A stretch of 64,000 nucleotides of DNA from a virus (lineage: Duplodnaviria; Caudoviricetes), in the IMG/VR virus record IMGVR_UViG_3300010167_000013, one strand, 5' to 3'. Made by a program: the position numbers and the translations under genes. Below the pieces are notes generated by a model that did no database searches, had not been told where the DNA came from, and saw only the letters and a list, made by a program, of their open reading frames with translations. Shown in pieces: positions 9,320 to 40,888 of this stretch. Numbering within the stretch: the stretch's first letter is position 1; each line of letters starts with the position of its first letter.

Positions 9320-12063
9320 TTGAGAGAGTTGGAAACAGAGACGTCTTAGTCAGAAATTACACCAGTAATTTCGACGTAAAGGAATTCATACAGAGCGTCC
9401 TCATACCAAAAGCATTCCCCAATGTTCCAATGAATAAACTCAATCTTGGATTCACAGGAGTGACATCCGAATACATATCCCAGGCTATTGAGGACTCATA
9501 TGCAACTGCTGCACTCATGCTAAACGAGTCATTCATCACCAGAGCTGTGCTACCTAACTCGATATATTCCGAGGCTTCATTGTTTGATCTTGGATATACG
9601 TTTGCTACTCCGTCCAAATGTAGCTTTGCTGTTCAGATATGGATGGAGGATATAATCAAACATTCTACCAGAGTAAGGAATACACCGACCAGTAGGTACA
9701 AGCTGGATAAAAATACAAAGTTACTACTTGGGAATAATTCATATCGTTTTGACTATGACATCTTCATTGATCATCAGTTCATTGATGGACGTAGAGCATT
9801 CAACGTATATTACGACATCACCGAGAATAATTCAATTGCTATCGTCACCAACAGATATGTCAGACACCAGGTGACCTCAATAGGATGGTTAGTATTATTC
9901 GTTGATCTACAAGAGTTTGATCGGAAGATAGAAGAGAATACAATCGCAGACAATCTGATTACTACTAATAGTGATATCATATTGAAATGGAGCAGACAGA
10001 TTGCTGGTATGGATCTAGTCTACATCACCCCTCGTGGTGAAAGACTTCCGATGAAAAAAAAGATTCAACATACTAGACCTGATCAAGATCCATTTTCATG
10101 GTATTCTTTCATCAATGATAACACGCTTCGATTGATATTCTCAGACAGAAGAGGGTTCTTCCAACCTGCATTCAATAGTAAAATTGAATCAACCATCTAC
10201 ACGTGCAGAGGAGCAATTTCCAACTTTGATGAGTATGACAATAAGTCGGCTGTTCCTGTACAGAGAACTGGAGAGGTGTTTGAATATAATGCTAATACCA
10301 GAATGGTTGCATTGTGTTACGGAGGATCCAAGGGAGGAACAGATAGAGGAAACATCGAACTACTGAGGGACGATGTAATTACAGCATATAACACCGTAAA
10401 GGTGTTGTCCACGGATCATGATTTGGATCTTTGGTTCAACAACTTTGCCAAACGTCATAACACAAAGGCTTGTTTCTTCAAGAGGAGGGATGATCCAACT
10501 GGGAAGCTCTTCTCCCAGTTTGTTGTGATAAACGACAACAGCTATGTGTATCCGACAAATACTCTCAGTATTGATGTTCAGCACGATCAATTTGATTTTG
10601 TGAACAGTGATGATTTAGGGAACAACAGGGAGTTCATCATCAAACCTGGTCATCTCTGGGAATATGTAGATGACAGTAGAGACACTGTGAGGATGGTTGA
10701 AGGAACAGAAGGATTGGCATTTGTGAGTGATGAAGCGTTACCTCCAATAACTACAGATAGACCATTCATGTTTGTCAACCCATTCTACATCAAGGTTCAT
10801 AGACAACCAACCCTGTCTGCTAATTATAATTACTTGATAGATCATACATCATGGCCTGATGACATTCCGATAGACACAGATGTATTCTATCAGTTCCAAT
10901 TGGCAACTTTGTCAATTGAAAGATCGTTGTCAAGAAAGCTGAATAACAAATACAGAATTCAGGTAATATGTGTTCCAGTAATAAGTCAGGATGGGAATAG
11001 CAAATACATTGAGGGAATCGGCAATGAGTTCCCAGTAGAAGGTAATGATCTACGCTTGATTCTAGTGACAAGATCAAGGTTGGATGGAGAAACAGGATAC
11101 ATCGAAATGAAACCTATTGAGCTCAGACCAGGTGGAGCTATCTTCTACGAAACGACAATATCAGTTCATGACAATCTGAGATCGGATATGATGCTAGAAG
11201 TTGACATTGATGAAACTCCAGGAATAACATCACTGATTGCAAATGGTCCTAGAGAAGGTGGAGTTTACATCGATTCTGCAGAAACCAGTTTTCATTTCCT
11301 GATAATGATGAGGGATCCAAAAAATACATCAACCACGAATTTGTACGGAAATGATACATTCCAAGGATATGCAATGGCAAACAGATTCGCCAATCAACAC
11401 AGAGATCTGATATTGTACAAGCCAATGACAATGATGAGATCTGTTGTTACATTTGCCGGTTACAACAACAACTTCAGTCTCAGAGGTACATTGACACCGT
11501 TATTGAAGTACGACGTACCACTTGATGAGGAGAAGATGTCGTATTTCATCAGAGCATTCACCGATCAGTATTCTGCTGTAGAACCAGTGTTGAAAAGACT
11601 GGATGGTAATTCATTCCTGGACTTCAAGTTATTCAACACATATGGTAGGTCCAATAACTACTACATAGGACCTGCAGATGATTCAGACGTACTGTGGGAT
11701 TCCAACATCTTACTGGACAATGTTCATGTGAAGATCAAATTCCGCATGGCAGTGCATGATAGATCGGCTTATGTTCAAACTGTGGATGCTGTGATCAACG
11801 AGATAAAACTATTTTTCGAATCCTTGGATAGTGGGGAGCTTAGGGATATTCATGTATCAGACTTGATTCATATCATCAAGGAGAGGCATCCAAACGTAAA
11901 CTACATTCGTTTTGTGGGATTCAATGATTACGATGCAAATAAGCAATCGATATTCGTAAAATACGATGACATTTCGGAATTACCAGCAAGTAGCATTCAA
12001 TGCCATGTTCCAGAGCTAGTAAGAGTCTCCAGAGAAAGCATAGAAATAATCGAAGAAGTATAA
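9316..12063 (+). CDS. Baseplate wedge subunit (T4 gp6/baseplate J-like)
   Basis: 915 aa. NESFITRA...SIY, YTCRGAISNF and SKGGTDR..IELLR motifs; C-terminal HVSDLI..IK. Confidence 0.7.
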   Translation: MIERVGNRDVLVRNYTSNFDVKEFIQSVLIPKAFPNVPMNKLNLGFTGVTSEYISQAIEDSYATAALMLNESFITRAVLPNSIYSEASLFDLGYTFATPSKCSFAVQIWMEDIIKHSTRVRNTPTSRYKLDKNTKLLLGNNSYRFDYDIFIDHQFIDGRRAFNVYYDITENNSIAIVTNRYVRHQVTSIGWLVLFVDLQEFDRKIEENTIADNLITTNSDIILKWSRQIAGMDLVYITPRGERLPMKKKIQHTRPDQDPFSWYSFINDNTLRLIFSDRRGFFQPAFNSKIESTIYTCRGAISNFDEYDNKSAVPVQRTGEVFEYNANTRMVALCYGGSKGGTDRGNIELLRDDVITAYNTVKVLSTDHDLDLWFNNFAKRHNTKACFFKRRDDPTGKLFSQFVVINDNSYVYPTNTLSIDVQHDQFDFVNSDDLGNNREFIIKPGHLWEYVDDSRDTVRMVEGTEGLAFVSDEALPPITTDRPFMFVNPFYIKVHRQPTLSANYNYLIDHTSWPDDIPIDTDVFYQFQLATLSIERSLSRKLNNKYRIQVICVPVISQDGNSKYIEGIGNEFPVEGNDLRLILVTRSRLDGETGYIEMKPIELRPGGAIFYETTISVHDNLRSDMMLEVDIDETPGITSLIANGPREGGVYIDSAETSFHFLIMMRDPKNTSTTNLYGNDTFQGYAMANRFANQHRDLILYKPMTMMRSVVTFAGYNNNFSLRGTLTPLLKYDVPLDEEKMSYFIRAFTDQYSAVEPVLKRLDGNSFLDFKLFNTYGRSNNYYIGPADDSDVLWDSNILLDNVHVKIKFRMAVHDRSAYVQTVDAVINEIKLFFESLDSGELRDIHVSDLIHIIKERHPNVNYIRFVGFNDYDANKQSIFVKYDDISELPASSIQCHVPELVRVSRESIEIIEEV

Positions 12064-12100
12064 AAAATAGACTCCGGGAATGTCCCCGGAGTCTATTTTT
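12063..12100. terminator. Bidirectional terminator
   Basis: AAAAATAGACTCCGGG...CCCGGAGTCTATTTTT between convergent genes. Confidence 0.8.
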
Positions 12101-12121
12101 ATCACACTTTGAAAAGGATGT

Positions 12122-12487
12122 TTAGGAGGTTTCTCCATATTTCGCTTCTCTGAAATTCTCCCCCATCTCAGTTACAATAGCAGATGCCAGTTGGCCACGA
12201 TAACTATATCCATCTCCATCCTCCGACTCATCTAATTCAGTCTCCTGAACTTCTATTTGGACAAGTTTGTGATACAAATCATTGTACATTTTTTCCGATA
12301 TAGAATCTATATCAGATATACCAAACTCAGCTTTCAAGAAGCGGGCAGCTAGTTCATCAAATATATATCTATATTCTTCTGCCGATAATGAGGGAGAATG
12401 GAGATTCTCCGAGAGGAACTGGACACCCTGCTCAATTGACCATACTTCAGTTTCCATCAGATTTGACTTTAGCATAGTTTCACCCAT
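12122..12487 (-). CDS. Acidic hypothetical protein
   Basis: 121-aa ORF, last gene of the 14111-12122 operon. Confidence 0.6.
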   Translation of the reverse strand: MGETMLKSNLMETEVWSIEQGVQFLSENLHSPSLSAEEYRYIFDELAARFLKAEFGISDIDSISEKMYNDLYHKLVQIEVQETELDESEDGDGYSYRGQLASAIVTEMGENFREAKYGETS

Positions 12488-12490
12488 TCC

Positions 12491-13030
12491 TTATTGAGTT
12501 AATGTCATCAACTTTCCAGTTTGATGGCTAACTATCACCCGCATGTTTCCTTTACAATAAGCCATACCTTCTGTGGCAGCAACAGGTGTTGAGGTTTTTA
12601 ATGCTTCGATTACATCGTTAAGGTTAAACAAACGCTCCAGCATTCTTTCATATGGATGTTGACCATTGATGCTTTTTATTGTTATTCCATCGGATGTTAC
12701 TATTCCAATTATTGAGTTACGGAAATTGCTTAAACCTTTTCGGTACTCGTCCTCTGTTAGTGTTAGTACTACCTCCCTAGTTCCAAATCGATATATTTCA
12801 ATATTGCCATCTGCATTCTTTGTTTTTGGACTCTCTATGAGATATTCATTTTCATCCAAATTCTCCAGGCTTGATTCATGAAACATCATATGGAACAGAT
12901 TATCAGCAAATAGTATTTCGTACTCTGGTTCCATCCATGGGAATGAGGTTACCCTGGATACGATTCCACATTTCCCAATTTGAGATCCTTTTATAATTTT
13001 AACTTCAGTTCCAATTGCGTATTTATTCAT
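12491..13030 (-). CDS. KOW/SH3-like domain plus DUF4258/BECR-fold putative RNase
   Basis: N-terminal GTEVKIIKG...GKCGIV; C-terminal HPYERMLER....DVIEAL...RVIVS..TGKLMT. Confidence 0.45.
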   Translation of the reverse strand: MNKYAIGTEVKIIKGSQIGKCGIVSRVTSFPWMEPEYEILFADNLFHMMFHESSLENLDENEYLIESPKTKNADGNIEIYRFGTREVVLTLTEDEYRKGLSNFRNSIIGIVTSDGITIKSINGQHPYERMLERLFNLNDVIEALKTSTPVAATEGMAYCKGNMRVIVSHQTGKLMTLTQ

Positions 13031-13038
13031 CTCATTAT

Positions 13039-13554
13039 TTATAAATAAGGAAGATGTCTCAGTAATACATCAATTTCCATGTCCATTATTTCGTCGAATG
13101 TCCACGGACATTCTTTCGGCATACTGTTCATTGAACTAACATGATACGATTTAGGATCAGCATCTAGTATTCTTTCAAATTCGTTGAATGCCCGCCGATA
13201 TGCTAGAGAGATATTTTTCTCCACCAGACAAAGAACATTTACATCAGGATCTTCAGTATCTCTGTCAGTTATATTGTCTATTTCTTCTCTGAACAACTTT
13301 ATCTCTTCAGATAATTTCCTTCGAGTCAAGGTGTCATTTCCATACTTGAGCTTGAAAATGTGAATAATAATCTGCTTCATGAATTTGTTGGCTGGCTTGG
13401 CATCTCTCTTAGTTCCTTCTAAGTAGAGTTCTTCGTCAAAGGCCTCTGTGAATGTTTTACCTTGCGACATTGCAATTAGCGCTCTCTTTATCCTAGCGAG
13501 CTCTTCAGTATGTCGATTGACTCTCTCCATCATCATTGTAAGTTCTTGATCCAT
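13039..13554 (-). CDS. DUF29-like protein (paralog 2)
   Basis: IIIHIFKLKY, AY..A and PKECPWTFDEIMD motifs. Confidence 0.7.
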   Translation of the reverse strand: MDQELTMMMERVNRHTEELARIKRALIAMSQGKTFTEAFDEELYLEGTKRDAKPANKFMKQIIIHIFKLKYGNDTLTRRKLSEEIKLFREEIDNITDRDTEDPDVNVLCLVEKNISLAYRRAFNEFERILDADPKSYHVSSMNSMPKECPWTFDEIMDMEIDVLLRHLPYL

Positions 13555-13565
13555 AGGTATCCTCC

Positions 13566-14111
13566 TCAGGCTTTCCCACGCAGGCCATTGAGTAATTGTT
13601 TTATTAATTCTTCAACATTATTAGTCATCAGCTCTTTTAGAGACCAAGGACATTTCTCGGGAATTAATCTAACCCCATCTTTCAGATCAGGATACATTTG
13701 AGAACTATTTTGGTAGAACGTTACACCAATACTATATGCGCTATTGATAGATTTCTCAGCGTATCTAATCAGTGATGTATATCCAGGGTTCTCCATCCAT
13801 TCTAGTAGCAATATCAATTCATTCCTAGAACTGCGAAAGTGATTCATCCATTGACGCCTATTACTCCGAAGTGTTAGCTCGCTATCACAATATGCCAATT
13901 TTAACAGGTGCTCTACCATTCTAGCGATGTGTTTCTTTGTTTCTCTTTGCTCACTTTTTGACTCAATGAATATTTCATCGTAGGCATCTCTAACAGATTC
14001 ATCCGATTGTAATCCATTTTTCATTGCTTCTATTGCTACCAACATCCTCTGGCAATATTCCAACATTCTCTGGATCATTTCATTTCTTTCTTCCTCAGTA
14101 GTATTTTTCAT
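13566..14111 (-). CDS. DUF29 family protein (paralog 1)
   Basis: KSEQRE...MVEHLLKLAY...RQW...R and PEKCPWSLKELM motifs. Start moved to ATG 14111 (AAAGGAG RBS, promoter just upstream). Confidence 0.75.
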   Translation of the reverse strand: MKNTTEEERNEMIQRMLEYCQRMLVAIEAMKNGLQSDESVRDAYDEIFIESKSEQRETKKHIARMVEHLLKLAYCDSELTLRSNRRQWMNHFRSSRNELILLLEWMENPGYTSLIRYAEKSINSAYSIGVTFYQNSSQMYPDLKDGVRLIPEKCPWSLKELMTNNVEELIKQLLNGLRGKA

Positions 14112-14138
14112 ATTATATTCTCTCCTTTGATATATCAT

Positions 14139-14152
14139 ATAATATATAATTA
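14139..14152 (-). promoter_or_regulatory. Early-type phage RNAP promoter core
   Basis: TAATTATATATTAT, 28 nt upstream of the DUF29 start. The motif recurs across the window and contains the AR9-like TATATTAT. Confidence 0.6.
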
Positions 14153-14154
14153 TC

Positions 14155-14190
14155 TGATGTAGTAACCTCCAGAGGGAGGTTACTACATCA
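14155..14190. terminator. Terminator hairpin downstream of the structured RNA
   Basis: TGATGTAGTAACCTCC-AGAG-GGAGGTTACTACATCA, a 16-bp perfect stem. Confidence 0.65.
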
Positions 14191-14214
14191 TTCATGAATA
14201 TAAAAATATTTATT

Positions 14215-14540
14215 CTGTACCATCGGAGTGGACTGGCCTATCCGGAATAAGCCAGCCCATGCTCAATAGTTTTTCAACCGATGGGTGTTACTATTTGTTA
14301 CTGGCCCGGGGATTGGTGGGCCTGCTCTTCCTTTATCAGATATCAGATATCTTAAGGAACCCCACTATGACTACCAGGGTTCGTACCGGCTTACGCTTCC
14401 TACGGTTACGAACCCTGGTTCGTTGACACTTACTATGCGTCCATATTCGTGCCAACTTATGCGAAGGAGAATAGACCTGGTACCGTAACAGTCGGAACTC
14501 TGCCGCTGCCATATGGTTTAACTATCCTCTCTCGTCACAA
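14215..14540 (-). ncRNA. Putative structured non-coding RNA, family unknown (~330 nt)
   Basis: GC-rich intergenic block with at least 6 stems, including a perfect 13-bp stem (14373-14385/14407-14419). G-U wobbles form only on the minus strand. Has its own promoter (14545-14575) and a downstream terminator. Confidence 0.65.
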
Positions 14541-14544
14541 AAAT

Positions 14545-14575
14545 AGAATATATAATTTTGTGAAAGGGATATACG
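14545..14575 (-). promoter_or_regulatory. Bipartite early-type promoter driving the ncRNA
   Basis: CGTATAT-N11-AATTATATATTCT on the minus strand. Confidence 0.6.
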
Positions 14576-14587
14576 ATTTATTTATAT

Positions 14588-14893
14588 TTATGATATGACC
14601 CCAGCAACAATTAATTTAGCCTCGAAGTCTGACAGTTGGTGAGCTATCTGTTCGTTGGTTATTGTTGGAAGGGGCTGACATTGCGGAGTTTGTTCAGGAA
14701 AATAAAATGTATCTGTTTCTTCATTATATCTCATCCATGGCACTATCTCGGCGTTTTGAGGGTGCTTGGAAATATCAAAAATGTGGACTGTATCATTATC
14801 GGTAGGCCACATGCCTAATGATTCGTCTCCGATAAGGTTAACGAAACCGTCGGATTTAAGGATTTGAACATATTTACGTTCGAAATCTGCCAT
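14588..14893 (-). CDS. Putative tail fibre assembly chaperone
   Basis: 101 aa directly downstream of the Gly-rich fibre; W.Y...T..F motif and C-terminal helix. Confidence 0.55.
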   Translation of the reverse strand: MADFERKYVQILKSDGFVNLIGDESLGMWPTDNDTVHIFDISKHPQNAEIVPWMRYNEETDTFYFPEQTPQCQPLPTITNEQIAHQLSDFEAKLIVAGVIS

Positions 14894-14908
14894 TTATTTA
14901 TCCCCCTA

Positions 14909-16354
14909 TTACCATTCGAAAAATACGATTCCGTTACCGCCTGCGCCGCCCAGTCCGCCTGTTCCACCCGTTGTCTGGGTTCCAGCTCCGCCTCCCCCGC
15001 CGCCTGCACCGTAACCACCACCGCCGCCTCCGCCTCCGCCAGTAGAGTTTGTATAATTACCGCCCCCATTCCCGCCTTTTGAAATCGCGCCCCCACCGCC
15101 TCCGCCGCCTGGTGCCATACTAACGGTGCTCGCCATACCAGAGCCCAAAGACCCGCCCAATGAACCAGCAGTACCATTCGTACTCGAGCCACCAAAACGA
15201 GTTCCACTGCCACCCTTGCCTCCGCCAGAATAGCCTATGCCTCCTGTTGTAATTAAATTTGTGGTTTGATTACCTCCGCTACCTCCGCCTCCGCCCCCAC
15301 CGCCTCCGCCGCCTCTTCCAGTGCCCCCATCTCCGCCATTACCACCGCTATATCCCGAAATTATATCGCCGCCAGCACCGCCTCCTCCTCCTCCACCGCC
15401 GAAGCCCCCAATGCCGCCGCCACCTCCATTACGGGCTGGAGTGGCTTGACCCTGCAACCCATTCAAGCCATTCGTAGCGTAGATTGAGGGTATAGAAATA
15501 TTCCCTTTGATTAATGTTATTGTACCAAGCCCAGCACCGCTCAACACAGTATTTCCCGCACCTACCGTAATAGATATATTTGCTCCTGCTGTAACGGTAT
15601 AAACACGGTCAACGCTTTCTCCAGCTTTACCGCCAACGCCAGCGATTTTATCCGTTGTAGGATTACCTCCATCTCCACCCGACGCAAAAGCTAATATCTT
15701 AATAGCAGTAACTCCTGTCGGCACGGTAAACGTCCCGTTCGCGGTAAACACGGCTTTTCTCGCGCCTGTTCCACCAGAACTACTACTTGACGAATTCAAT
15801 ATTGCATTTAGTTTCGCCATTGCAGTACCCGCCGACGCAGTACCGCCCGTATCACCTGTAACACCTAAATTACTTTGCGCGGCTCTAGTACTAATAGCTG
15901 CATCTAAATTCCCAGCTCTAGCATCTGTCCAAGTATTTACAAATTTATTTGCTATCCATTTGATTATGCTGAACACACTACTGCCATTATTAGCAGCAGT
16001 ATCTTCAGAATTCCCAATTGATTCACTAATGTCATCTATGTCTTGCTGCATATTAGAAAAATTAACAGAAACTAATATCTCACCCTCCAAATCGGGTAAT
16101 ATATTCAAGTCAATAACAAATGTCTTGACAGTCTCAACTTCTTCAGGTTCAATGGTTACTGTAGTCACCATACCACTAGCCTTGTTCCCAATGTAAATCT
16201 CAAACTGGTATTCAATTGGGTTCTCATCGTCATTCGGAGGAATAACAATTGCACAGCTGTACTTCTTGTCACCTATTGGTACTAGTGGATAAAATGCATC
16301 TAGATCCAGTGAATACACTTTCACTTCTGGTATCAATGTAACAACTTTAGCCAT
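14909..16354 (-). CDS. Glycine-rich tail fibre/receptor-binding protein
   Basis: VFTANGTFTVPTGVT..., long Gly tracts, GAGGNGIVFFEW ending. Confidence 0.8.
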   Translation of the reverse strand: MAKVVTLIPEVKVYSLDLDAFYPLVPIGDKKYSCAIVIPPNDDENPIEYQFEIYIGNKASGMVTTVTIEPEEVETVKTFVIDLNILPDLEGEILVSVNFSNMQQDIDDISESIGNSEDTAANNGSSVFSIIKWIANKFVNTWTDARAGNLDAAISTRAAQSNLGVTGDTGGTASAGTAMAKLNAILNSSSSSSGGTGARKAVFTANGTFTVPTGVTAIKILAFASGGDGGNPTTDKIAGVGGKAGESVDRVYTVTAGANISITVGAGNTVLSGAGLGTITLIKGNISIPSIYATNGLNGLQGQATPARNGGGGGIGGFGGGGGGGGAGGDIISGYSGGNGGDGGTGRGGGGGGGGGGGSGGNQTTNLITTGGIGYSGGGKGGSGTRFGGSSTNGTAGSLGGSLGSGMASTVSMAPGGGGGGGAISKGGNGGGNYTNSTGGGGGGGGGYGAGGGGGGAGTQTTGGTGGLGGAGGNGIVFFEW

Positions 16355-16432
16355 AATATCACATCCCCTATGATGATTTTAAGATTAACTTAGGGTGGAT
16401 GGTTAATATAATGACAAAAAAAGAACTGAGAC

Positions 16433-16867
16433 TCAGTTCTTTTCTTTTTCTAGGTATGTGAATAAATCTAATGTTTGAATGTTCCCATACCAATGCTGAA
16501 GCATTATTTGATGATGTTTCGAAATGTAATTGAACATTTCAGTTTTTTTCTTTCCCTTCAATTCCCTTTCGACTTTGACAAGCTGTGTTCCTTTCAAAAG
16601 AATTCTTGGATTCTCTTCGATACTTACTGATATCATATTTCCATCGGGCATCAAAACCTTCACGCGAGGTATGCTATGAGTATTAGTTCTGGTTTTCCCA
16701 AGATCATCAAACCATAACCCGTAAGGTAGCCCAGAGCTTTTTGCCGGCCAATTTGCCATCTCAAATATTCCATCTTTGTACATGGCAATATTTTCCAACA
16801 CTTGTAACTGAAATGCTTTCATTTCAACAGTTGCTACTTCTTTCCCGAGTTTTTCCAAATCGTTCAT
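16433..16867 (-). CDS. DUF4160-like protein
   Basis: FEMAN...GLPY.LW.D...H..PRVKV...I..H...ML.HW pattern. Start at 16867 after GGAGGTG. Confidence 0.5.
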   Translation of the reverse strand: MNDLEKLGKEVATVEMKAFQLQVLENIAMYKDGIFEMANWPAKSSGLPYGLWFDDLGKTRTNTHSIPRVKVLMPDGNMISVSIEENPRILLKGTQLVKVERELKGKKKTEMFNYISKHHQIMLQHWYGNIQTLDLFTYLEKEKN

Positions 16868-16909
16868 TTGGTACACCTCCTAATTATATTTTTATTTTAT
16901 CTCATATTC

Positions 16910-16959
16910 ATAATATATAATTCTAAGTATAATATATAATTCTAAGTATAATATATACG
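16910..16959 (-). repeat. 19-bp tandem repeat (~2.5 copies) of the early promoter core
   Basis: ATAATATATAATTCTAAGT at 16910 and 16929, partial copy at 16948; includes CGTATAT-N11-AATTATATATTAT. Confidence 0.8.
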
Positions 16960-23063: not shown

Positions 23064-24962
23064 ATGTCAGAGAAGAAACATTTTCTGGAGTACTCCAACA
23101 GAACCAATAGCAATATTATTCCCAAGGATAGTTTCGATGATTTGGTCCAGGAGGTATTCGGAATAATATCAACAAATATCGCAAAGTCACTAGGTCCTCT
23201 TGGATCTTCAACTGTGATATTAGACGGCATGTTGACTAGTACTACCAAGGATGGTCATGCCATATTCAAAAGTTTTAGATTCCATAACCGATACAAGAAT
23301 ATGATATATAATTTGATAAAAGCCCCCTGTACACGCCTCAACAATACCGTGGGTGATGGTACCACAACTGCCATTGTACTAACGAACTACCTATTCCAGT
23401 ACTACCAGAAAATGAAATATGGGTTAGATTGTTACTACAGGCTTCCAAGAACATTTGTACAAACCTGGGATCATCTGATAGAAGAAATAGTAGAAAAGAT
23501 CAAAGGATATGCTACCCCATTGAACCCAGATGATTATGATCTTATTTACAGCCTGTCATATATCGCATCAAACGGTAATAGCGAGATCTGCAAAAATATT
23601 GCCGATACGTACAAAGATGCTAAGTCCCCTGTGATCAAATTGAAAAACTCTCCAACTAACAAGAGCTACATTACTCCGATCATAGGATTTGAGTTCCCTG
23701 CCAATCTCATTGATCAAGCCTATGTTAGAAACGAAGACCTCAGTACTGAAGAGAAGGATATCTGCGTGATGATATTCGACTACAAGATTGAAGCAGATAT
23801 ATGTTTGGATTTCATTATTCCTATGAACGAAGTACTGAAGGCTCAAGGAAAGAAACTTCTGGTATTAGCTCCATACTATGATGCTCATTTGTCAAATACT
23901 ACACTGAAGAGTTACATGAATCAAGAATATCAGAAGTATAAAAGCCTCAATCTCATACTTGCACAATATGCTATTGGGAAGCTGGATGATTATCAACTCC
24001 TAGATCTTTCTACCGTACTGAGGGCTATTGTCATCAACCAGGATATAGGACGAGAATTATTAGATGGATCTGGTAAGAATAAATTTTCTGGAATGACCGA
24101 TGGAGAAAAATATGAATTCGTTGAGGAAATCAAGGATACATCTCATCGGTATCATGGGCTAATTGGTACAGCAGCAACTGCTCTATTGTCATGCACAAAT
24201 GGATCTATCTTCAGGGTAAACGATATTGAGACTGATGAAAGATACATGGATATGTTGAGATCTGCTGAAAAAGAACTTCAGTCGATAATCGGACGTACTG
24301 ACAATGAGAAACAAGGATATGCATTTGAGATATCTAAAGCTCAGGCTAGGATATCACAGCTGAAGATGGAAAACTATCTATACTATATCGGATCGGATTC
24401 TGCTCTTCAGACTAATATCATATGGGACTCGGTGGAAGATGTAGTAAAATGTATTCGTTCGGCTATAAAATCAGGAACTGTTCCAGGATGCCAGTTATCA
24501 ATAGTGAGAGCCTGCATGGAACTGACAAAGGAAATCGGATCTGATATCACAGACATGAAAGAACTTACTGATTCGCAGAAGTTAGAGATAGGTATACTAC
24601 AGATGATACAAGATGCTGTCATCAATGTGTACAGATCGGTACTTCATGGTCCAGAAGGAAGAGGAATGATCAAGCTCGTTCCGATGTGGCAACATATCAG
24701 AGAAGAAGGAGCAGATGATCTAATCAAGGAAGCAAATAGCAAATGTGATAGTATCATTGAAGAATCCGTGATACGGAATGAAGTATTTGATCTGGAGACA
24801 CTAAAACACAATCCGAAGATAATAACATCAGCTGAGACAGATACCATGATATTGATCGCCTGCAGTGAACTGATAAAACTGTTGATATCAGGAAATCAAT
24901 GTGTATTCTTGGATGCTGAGATCAACAATGCACATGATGAAGAAGCAGAAGCATACGTATAA
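23064..24962 (+). CDS. groEL: Phage GroEL-like chaperonin
   Basis: SLGPLG, TTKDG, VGDGTTTAIVL and VEDVV..IRSAIKSGTVPG motifs. Confidence 0.9.
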   Translation: MSEKKHFLEYSNRTNSNIIPKDSFDDLVQEVFGIISTNIAKSLGPLGSSTVILDGMLTSTTKDGHAIFKSFRFHNRYKNMIYNLIKAPCTRLNNTVGDGTTTAIVLTNYLFQYYQKMKYGLDCYYRLPRTFVQTWDHLIEEIVEKIKGYATPLNPDDYDLIYSLSYIASNGNSEICKNIADTYKDAKSPVIKLKNSPTNKSYITPIIGFEFPANLIDQAYVRNEDLSTEEKDICVMIFDYKIEADICLDFIIPMNEVLKAQGKKLLVLAPYYDAHLSNTTLKSYMNQEYQKYKSLNLILAQYAIGKLDDYQLLDLSTVLRAIVINQDIGRELLDGSGKNKFSGMTDGEKYEFVEEIKDTSHRYHGLIGTAATALLSCTNGSIFRVNDIETDERYMDMLRSAEKELQSIIGRTDNEKQGYAFEISKAQARISQLKMENYLYYIGSDSALQTNIIWDSVEDVVKCIRSAIKSGTVPGCQLSIVRACMELTKEIGSDITDMKELTDSQKLEIGILQMIQDAVINVYRSVLHGPEGRGMIKLVPMWQHIREEGADDLIKEANSKCDSIIEESVIRNEVFDLETLKHNPKIITSAETDTMILIACSELIKLLISGNQCVFLDAEINNAHDEEAEAYV

Positions 24963-31170: not shown

Positions 31171-31579
31171 CACTACCTTCACATGGTTCGCAAGTCCATG
31201 CAGTACATTTAAGTACTTCTTATGCTCTCGCATAACGACATCAGAATCTCACTGATGAAGTGGCATTATGCCAGTTGAGACTATATCTTTAACTACACGA
31301 TGTGTAGCAGAGCTAAGCTTTTCCATTTAAGGGATTCTCACCCGCCAGCATCAGCTTCTGGCCGTACTCCTGTTGGCATTTCAGCCCAAGGGATAGTCGT
31401 TGAACCTTCCACCTACGTTGTAGGTAGCTTGGCTGCGTATGATTATCTCTATCAACTACGTTTTTACAATACCCAGATCGTTATACCTGGTGCTACACCA
31501 TCTATCACTAGTGGCTGCTGTAGTAGTTGCCTAACGAGATGTTCCCGCAATTAACATAGTTTAACGAGTACAAAATTTC
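31171..31579 (-). ncRNA. Group I intron 2 (409 nt, no ORF)
   Basis: P1 GAGTAT/GTACTC with U.G at the splice site; P AATTGCGGGAA, Q ACGCAGCC, R GTTCAACGACTA, S AAGATATAGTCT; terminal G at 31171. Confidence 0.9.
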
Positions 31580-32299
31580 ATACTCTCCAAACCTTATGGG
31601 AGTCTCAGAAAAGGGCGCCTTAGAGATCTTTGACTCGTGAGACTTTTCTGGTAGAGATTCATCAGAAATAGCTCCAGCCGATCTTACCGAAAATCCCCTT
31701 TCCCCACTCTGCTTCAGTAGCAGAATATATTGATACCCAACATAGTCTTTCCCAATGTAGATATCCCTTCCCCAATTTGGTTTTGGAACAAATATGTTGT
31801 ACGGTTTTATTACATCGCCATACTTCTCATATATTTCAATGATAGCATCACGTAGATTAATTTCCTTGCTGAATGCCTCCCATCTAATGTATATTCCTTG
31901 ATTAGTCATGATGAGTCCATTGCTGTCTAGAGAGATTGAGGATTCTACAAACTTTCTCTTCTCTCTATCTGACAATGTCTTGTACAGTGCTCGTAGATCT
32001 TTGGATTGATATGGGTTCAGAATATCCATGATCTTGAACATGAATTCTACCGCATCATCATTATTCAAGGTAGCCATATGTTTTCTAGTTCTATCCAGAA
32101 TAAATGTGATGCTAGGTTCAATCAATGCCATTGGTATAGTTCTATTTATTACAGCTAGAGAGTTTGTGATTAGATCCACTCGCTCATGGGGACCTGATGG
32201 ATGAACAACCCCATCCTCATCTGAATATGCCTCTGTGGTAAGATATGGCATATCTTCATCTTTCCAGATATTGCAAACGACAGCTTTGTTTCCGTGTCT
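31580..32299 (-). CDS. rpoB: RNA polymerase beta C-terminal subunit, exon 2
   Basis: RHGNKAVV, DMPY, DLITNSL, VGYQYILLLKQ...SVRS.G and PIRFGEY motifs. Confidence 0.9.
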
Positions 32300-40468: not shown

Positions 40469-40556
40469 GTTTCCGTGTATCATATATCCTACTAATTCAA
40501 TGATATATTCTATATATGTAACAAAATAAAATATATTATACTTGGGAGGTATAATC

Positions 40557-40850
40557 ATGAACGACAACGACTTGATGACGTACAAAGAGTTTGTTGCCAG
40601 CAGAACAACAAACAGCAGTTTGATAAAAACATTCAGACCGCATCTCAAACTTACCCAGGAACATCTTGGGAGACTCTTGGGTGTAAGACAGGACACGGTC
40701 TCTAGATGGGAAAAATCCATTGGCATCTCTGAGCATATGCCGATAAGTAAGTTGTGTAAATTTGCACAACTTTTAGGAGTTAGCGTTGAAGACCTAATGT
40801 ACCGCTATAGGGCAGTCAATGACAAACTTGTTTCGGTGAGGTATCAATAA
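40557..40850 (+). CDS. XRE-family HTH regulator
   Basis: LTQEHLGRLLGVRQDTVSRWE motif; GGGAGG RBS; promoter variant CATATAT-N11-AATGATATATTCT at 40481-40511. Confidence 0.85.
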   Translation: MNDNDLMTYKEFVASRTTNSSLIKTFRPHLKLTQEHLGRLLGVRQDTVSRWEKSIGISEHMPISKLCKFAQLLGVSVEDLMYRYRAVNDKLVSVRYQ

Positions 40851-40888
40851 AAAATAAACCCAGGCGAATTCGCCTGGGTTTATTTTTT
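40849..40888. terminator. Bidirectional terminator
   Basis: AAAATAAACCCAGGCGAATTCGCCTGGGTTTATTTT. Confidence 0.8.

Follow-up and report, generated by a model that had tools for sequence, protein, structure and literature searches.

A candidate stand-alone structured non-coding RNA in the genome of an uncultured AR9-like jumbo phage

The pRNA of phi29-type phages (RF00044) is a stand-alone structured phage RNA that is transcribed from an early promoter and is neither an intron, a tRNA nor a tmRNA. The GOLLD, ROOL, raiA, OLE and HEARO families of RNA occur in mobile or phage contexts, and ToxI-like RNAs, which consist of direct repeats of about 34-36 nt arranged in tandem, are found upstream of a toxin gene. 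To our knowledge, almost nothing is known about the non-coding RNAs of jumbo phages. phiKZ expresses some non-coding RNAs (review PMC13282480), and the early promoters of AR9 have the consensus AAATATATATTAT-N6-G(+1) and are used by the injected virion RNA polymerase (PMC5312081).

Here we describe a structured block of about 320 nt in the genome of an uncultured jumbo phage. The distant kin of this phage are the AR9/PBS1, Staphylococcus S6-like and Fusobacterium phages, with whose counterparts its 915-aa structural protein shares 22-28% amino-acid identity. We tentatively favour the reading that the block is a stand-alone orphan gene for an early-transcribed, structured non-coding RNA of about 320-385 nt, although we hold this with slightly less confidence than would let us call it probable. 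The status of the block as a new RNA family is plausible but unproven.

The locus and its fold

The block was analysed within a stretch of 64,000 nt of phage DNA (the window), to which all positions refer unless a relative is named. It shares its orientation, on the minus strand, with both neighbouring operons (the fibre/101-aa operon and the DUF29 operon). The locus is made up as follows:

14219..14538, minus strand: structured RNA body, ~320 nt (MFE, shuffle z, no Rfam match)
14588-14893 (stop at 14588), minus strand: 101-aa ORF, upstream neighbour of the block (ORF reading)
ATG at 14111, minus strand: DUF29 gene (Pfam PF01724, E = 6e-9), downstream neighbour of the block
roughly 12100-16950: accessory island of ~4.8 kb (relatives are without it)

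An earlier note, made from the sequence alone, had described the block as visibly more GC-rich than the genome, and this description held: the GC content of 14219-14538 is 0.46-0.50, compared with 0.389 for the window as a whole. The genes within about 5 kb of the block comprise a fibre-like gene, the 101-aa orphan, DUF29 genes and unknowns; farther away in the window, the phage encodes a GroEL-like chaperonin (23064-24962, plus strand; phrog_5725, E = 1e-66). The block is one of three gaps of at least 220 nt in the 64-kb window that contain no codon-plausible ORF. The second such gap is a group I intron (RF00028; 31260-31606, minus strand; E = 4e-8), which scores slightly below the Rfam threshold (44.6 vs 50 bits). 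The third, at 40469-40886 (418 nt), contains promoter-motif copies that face each other at 40500 (plus strand) and 40539 (minus strand), and each of its strands gives a weak, palindromic Rfam match (BSnc120, 33 and 28 bits).

On the minus strand, the 320-nt core folds with a minimum free energy (MFE) of -118.6 kcal/mol, corresponding to z = -5.44 against dinucleotide shuffles; the plus strand reaches -99.3 kcal/mol and z = -2.50 against shuffles of the same kind. The main helices have base-pair probabilities of 0.8-1.0, and 4 of the 5 domains are individually significant on the minus strand. Among 26 GC-rich ORF-free gaps, collected from the window and from three related complete genomes, the block has the strongest z, and its GC-corrected MFE is the second most negative among 797 sequence windows. 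These fold statistics are nevertheless weak discriminators, because the known group I intron at 31260-31606 is not flagged by them. The observation is real, and for one sequence it clearly exceeds what chance would produce, but it has yet to become an established discovery.

All of the minus-strand helices listed in the earlier note were found in the sequence where it had placed them. Read from the 5' end of the RNA, the fold comprises:

14457..14538, minus strand: 5' domain, a closing stem and GAGGAUAG/CUAUUCUC around a UGGCAG-CGG hairpin (z = -2.4, pair probability 0.72-0.99)
14529-14522 / 14474-14467, minus strand: the helix GAGGAUAG/CUAUUCUC, enclosing UGGCAG/CUGUUA (read in the sequence)
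14422..14456, minus strand: hairpin 2, formed by GUUGGCAC/GUGUCAAC (14456-14449 / 14429-14422) with an inner UAUG/CAUA (from the fold)
14373..14419, minus strand: hairpin 3, a perfect 13-bp stem (14419-14407 / 14385-14373) with a 3-bp extension and a GUAA (GNRA) tetraloop (from the fold)
14274..14370, minus strand: central multi-branch domain with GUGGG/CCCAU as closing helix, UUCCUU/AAGGAA and GGCCC/GGGCC (from the MFE fold); by itself not significant (z = -0.72 over 14272-14372)
14219..14284, minus strand: 3' domain, a 14-bp hairpin with 3 G-U pairs (14259-14246 / 14242-14229) inside CCAUCGG/CCGAUGG or the alternative ACUAUUG/CGAUGGU (from the fold)

The individual domains differ in how far they distinguish the two strands. 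Hairpin 2 has a folding energy of -14.6 kcal/mol and z = -4.65 on the minus strand, vs -6.6 kcal/mol and z = -1.87 on the plus strand, and the 3' domain has -30 kcal/mol and z = -3.95 vs -22.6 kcal/mol and z = -1.88. Hairpin 3 (-28 kcal/mol, z = -6.3; domain value -6.33) folds equally well on both strands, because it is without G-U pairs. Over the whole MFE structure of the minus strand, 13 of the 115 pairs are G-U. The earlier note had argued from such pairs for selection at the RNA level. What stands of this argument is the presence of the G-U pairs and a shuffle-normalised z that favours the minus strand; the difference between the raw folding energies of the two strands, however, ranks 142nd among the 797 windows and is ordinary for this genome. 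The strand preference is thus modest, with the shuffle-normalised scores alone pointing to the minus strand, and the G-U argument is weaker than had been claimed.

The same comparison bears on whether the block acts as DNA, that is, as a cluster of protein-binding or cruciform palindromes such as a replication, recombination or packaging signal. We consider such a DNA-level site very unlikely. The plus strand is somewhat above chance too (z = -2.5) and the strongest stem, the perfect one of 13 bp, folds alike on both strands; but the plus strand is clearly the weaker one at hairpin 2 and at the 3' hairpin (by the energies given above), the promoter described below points into the block, and there are no iterons or repeated binding-site motifs in it except a 7-nt unit repeated 2.6 times.

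Two pseudoknots had also been suggested from complementary loops. One of them, GUGGG/CCCAC, clashes with the GGCCC stem, and the strand ACUAUU of the other is paired otherwise in the MFE fold. In the modelled structure, these pairings may possibly represent alternatives that compete with the MFE helices.

Promoter, transcript ends and coding capacity

The sequences around and within the block contain the following elements:

14569..14575, minus strand: upstream promoter element CGTATAT, 11 nt before the core (the same element and spacing occur at other copies of the core)
14545..14557, minus strand: early-class promoter core AATTATATATTCT (recurring motif that resembles the AR9 early consensus)
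14538, minus strand: predicted transcription start G, the 9th base after TATATATT (by analogy with the spacing in AR9 early promoters)
14336..14512, minus strand: 58-codon ORF within the RNA, judged non-coding (codon score, no homologue)
14155..14190, minus strand: perfect 16-bp hairpin without a U-tract, putative transcript end (inverted-repeat reading)
14137..14151, minus strand: second copy of the early promoter core, for the DUF29 operon with its ATG at 14111 (motif copy)

The core AATTATATATTCT agrees with the AR9 consensus AAATATATATTAT at 11 of 13 positions, and the 9th base beyond TATATATT is a G. The core is also an exact match to the phage's own promoter consensus, copies of which precede several of the window's genes at 24-42 nt from the start codon. 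This core is the sole part of the query with BLAST matches in related phages, where it is present in many copies. The full bipartite early promoter that the earlier note had claimed is therefore borne out as a recurring motif, with the consensus and spacing of AR9. As judged by this motif, the block is preceded by a putative early promoter of the AR9 type (virion RNA polymerase), from which transcription is predicted to start near G14538.

On the 3' side, the block is followed by an AT-rich linker, the 16-bp hairpin, the second promoter core and the ribosome-binding site of the DUF29 gene, in this order. Only a part of the downstream terminator that had been proposed could be verified: the perfect 16-bp hairpin is present, but it has no U-tract, and a scan with a terminator consensus gave no call at 14155-14190. 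Among the relatives, comparable hairpins, both with and without T-runs, are located 5' of DUF29 promoters, and in one relative comparable U-poor hairpins occur at gene ends. Since the DUF29 gene has a separate copy of the promoter, the RNA would form a unit of its own; without a U-tract at the hairpin, transcription may continue into DUF29. At the other end, no terminator is present in the sequence between the 101-aa gene and the block, so that late transcripts of the fibre operon may cross the block, and the block could serve as a 3' UTR of the 101-aa gene.

These observations leave some room for a cis-acting RNA, which would be either a long 5' leader of the DUF29 operon or a 3' UTR of the late fibre/101-aa operon that guards the mRNA from 3' exonucleases. 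Such a reading is at odds with the presence of two promoters, one in front of the block and one, for the DUF29 gene, past the hairpin; the DUF29 operons of two relatives consist of a hairpin and a promoter with no leader; no riboswitch or leader family matches the block; and no clear antiterminator alternative is apparent on reading the sequence. What speaks for a cis-acting element is the stretch from the 101-aa stop (14588) to the block, which is free of terminators, the possible read-through at 14155-14190, and the orientation that the block has in common with both neighbouring operons. Taken together, we regard this explanation as quite unlikely.

The 58-codon ORF raises the further possibility that the early transcript encodes a protein. 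When scored with the phage's own codon table, this ORF reaches -0.11 bits per codon, which is within the off-frame range and below all 234 in-frame 58-codon segments taken from real genes. It belongs to no Pfam family, its 58-aa product has no relative in a set of 5.8 billion proteins, and a full HMMER scan with it returned long Arg-rich repeat proteins only. Gene callers left this stretch empty on other contigs. The ORF of 58 codons is accompanied by ORFs of 55 and 67 codons on the opposite strand of the block; open frames of similar length therefore arise cheaply from the composition.

One observation counts against the non-coding reading: the distance of 31 nt from promoter to AUG, together with the GAGG that precedes this AUG, is near the values of real genes in this phage. 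A small protein gene, whose early transcript would encode a 58-aa arginine-rich basic peptide (ATG 14512), would account for this likeness to real early genes and for a frame that stays open over 58 codons. We consider such a gene highly improbable, with no more than a slight chance of being correct, given the codon score below every real segment, the lack of a homologue and of a Pfam family, and the cheapness of open frames in this block. Moreover, its GAGG is located 13 nt before the AUG, compared with 8-10 nt at neighbouring genes, and the ORF crosses stems of -14.6 and -28 kcal/mol. The non-coding call of the earlier note is thus not undone by the ORF, with codon score, Pfam, homologue and HMMER searches all arguing against coding.

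Known RNA families and related phages

The earlier note could not match the block to tRNA, tmRNA or group I introns and had suggested a search of Rfam. This search was run with Rfam 15 (4227 models) and produced no family match: the whole window has 0 matches at gathering thresholds, and the best match on the block at E <= 10, to the DUF2693 RNA, is not credible (13 bits vs a threshold of 81). ARAGORN reports 0 tRNA or tmRNA genes in the whole window. The inability of the note to place the block in any of these three classes was thereby confirmed.

Several specific identities were considered and rejected. A group I intron does not agree with the intergenic position of the block and with its own promoter, nor with the absence of an RF00028 match at E <= 10; in addition, the order of helices misfits P3-P4-P6-P7-P3'-P8-P7', because a P8 could not be accommodated between the strands that are candidates for P3' and P7'. 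Identity as a tRNA or tmRNA is contradicted by the ARAGORN result. For an omega RNA of TnpB or IscB, there is no match to a transposon nuclease family among the genes within about 5 kb, and for the template repeat of a DGR, no repeat is shared by the block and the fibre gene or the rest of the window. A retron msr-msd RNA was rejected on the grounds that the downstream genes encode DUF29 proteins and that no reverse transcriptase family is found among the neighbours. The sole tandem repeat in the block is the 7-nt unit mentioned above (x 2.6), and Pfam shows no RNase toxin among the neighbours, which is not what is seen with a type III antitoxin RNA (ToxI-like). A riboswitch or leader was set aside for lack of an Rfam family match.

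To place the block among its relatives, we used ten IMG/VR jumbo-phage records (55-77% amino-acid identity, five of them complete) that were found via the major capsid protein and the 915-aa protein. No counterpart of the RNA was detected in these ten records by blastn, by nhmmer or by two covariance models, R1 (14216-14372) and R2 (14373-14534). There was likewise no homologue by blastn in the INPHARED phages and PLSDB plasmids, by exact-pattern scans of the IMG/VR and GTDB genomes, or by IMG/VR scans with both flanking proteins, and the 6 matches from a pattern scan of JGI metagenomes were chance ones, all rejected by the covariance models. The flanking proteins are near-orphans themselves: among 5.8 billion proteins, the 101-aa ORF retrieves itself and one homologue (57%) on a 775-bp contig from ERZ27264051, and the DUF29 protein itself alone. 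The same phage is present in JGI 3300010882, ENA ERZ27257295 and Logan runs; ERZ27257304 and the runs SRR10512951 and SRR5215144 likewise contain it. The other copies of the RNA for which there is DNA (L025 and L026) are 100% identical to it across the RNA, and because they are the sole other copies, covariation gives no signal either way. Two relatives have DUF29 operons whose 5' side consists of a hairpin and a promoter and no RNA, which speaks against an obligatory module of RNA and DUF29. HMM searches gave no support for a BECR RNase among the neighbours.

Gene content 3' of the 915-aa homologue differs in the relatives, and because they carry other genes at this place, the island at about 12100-16950 is lineage-specific. 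Besides the RNA, it contains a pair of DUF29 genes, two unknown genes, the 101-aa gene and a fibre-like gene of 60% GC whose 481-aa product is Gly-rich, and it is bordered by a bidirectional terminator (12063-12100) and by tandem early promoters (16910-16947).

Such a setting would also suit relic or selfish DNA, that is, a non-functional remnant of mobile or horizontally acquired DNA (for example a decayed intron or an insertion element) that was brought in with the variable fibre island and whose palindromes serve no purpose. In its favour, the island around the block is absent from relatives, the products of both flanking genes have almost no kin in the set of 5.8 billion proteins, the RNA is missing from the 10 related records, and the genome has mobile introns. 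A remnant is, however, difficult to reconcile with an exact early promoter directly 5' of the block, with flanking promoter copies that are both intact, and with G-U pairs that are concentrated in the helices of one strand. Nor does the block resemble the window's group I intron or any other sequence of the window; it has no Rfam group I signal at E <= 10, no terminal inverted repeats and no split target site. We therefore judge this explanation unlikely, though one to be taken seriously. Chance takes the remainder of our confidence after the named readings.

Other ORF-free regions and RNA genes were observed in the relatives. A 270-kb relative has an ORF-free block of ~300 nt with a GC content of 0.48 (G003:C1:183738-184036; L072:3738-4036), which is followed by a canonical terminator and has z ~ -3 on both strands; it has no Rfam match and no similarity to the 14219-14538 RNA. 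The region G003:C1:188525-189496 (L072:8525-9496) contains three adjacent RF00028 matches in 1 kb (63, 48 and 32 bits). In a 292-kb relative, eight ORF-free gaps are clustered at G001:C1:106000-115200 (L038), and the gap 112250-112800 in this cluster contains the group I-like AATTGCGGGAAA and GAAGATATAGTC, with no RF00028 match at E < 0.01. Four tRNA genes (Lys, Gln, Asn and Met; G001:C1:45219-47239) are present in the complete relative that is closest to this phage; tRNA genes are absent from the window and from two other relatives.

A possible role and comparison with known systems

We propose that the block is transcribed early in infection as a non-coding RNA of its own. The bipartite promoter at 14575-14545, which is of the early class (virion RNA polymerase type), would start a transcript near G14538 that ends no later than at the 16-bp hairpin at 14190-14155. 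From its 5' end, the body of the RNA would fold into a stem of three tiers, two strong hairpins, of which one carries a GNRA tip, a multi-branch centre of lesser strength and, on the 3' side, a strong hairpin domain. The block, so far found in this phage lineage alone, is part of a variable accessory island. With its synthesis beginning in the first minutes of infection, the RNA may be a stable one that acts in trans and binds a protein as a decoy or scaffold. We infer this mode of action because of the early promoter class, the multi-domain fold and the lack of an obvious antisense target or cis partner; action by base-pairing or as a cis element seems less likely than protein binding. The decoy, antitoxin, scaffold and ribozyme functions put forward for the RNA are not established.

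If this proposal is true, a 320-nt multi-domain RNA made from a promoter of the virion polymerase would represent an early phage product of a new kind and might offer new RNA biochemistry. A bolder version would make the block the first known example of a new class of phage RNAs, large and intricately folded, that are made early by the virion RNA polymerase and serve as ribozymes or as the core of a take-over or anti-defence RNP, carried as swappable cargo of the island; we hold this version to be speculative and unlikely. The present value of the block is that of a well-defined target, with its ends, strand and helices given, in a single sequence from an uncultured phage.

The block can be compared with several described systems. 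With the GOLLD, ROOL, raiA, OLE and HEARO RNAs it shares an intergenic location, a fold of many helices and a GC content raised above that of an AT-rich genome; weighing GC content against intergenic length, the approach behind those RNAs, also singled out the block. Those families comprise hundreds of covarying sequences, whereas the block is a one-sequence orphan; none of their models matches it at E <= 10, and it has no tRNA neighbours. The group I introns of AR9/phiKZ-like phages are of similar size (about 320-350 nt), and at least one of them is found in the same genome, but the block splits no gene and shares no sequence with the window's intron. The non-coding RNAs of phiKZ, like the RNA proposed here, are non-coding transcripts of a jumbo phage; they are defined by expression and the block by structure, and a relation in sequence is not expected. 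Finally, the block differs from the pRNA of phi29-type phages in having no Rfam match and no evident link to packaging, in being about twice the size, and in belonging to an AR9-like jumbo phage, but like the pRNA it would be a stand-alone structured phage RNA with an early-type promoter.
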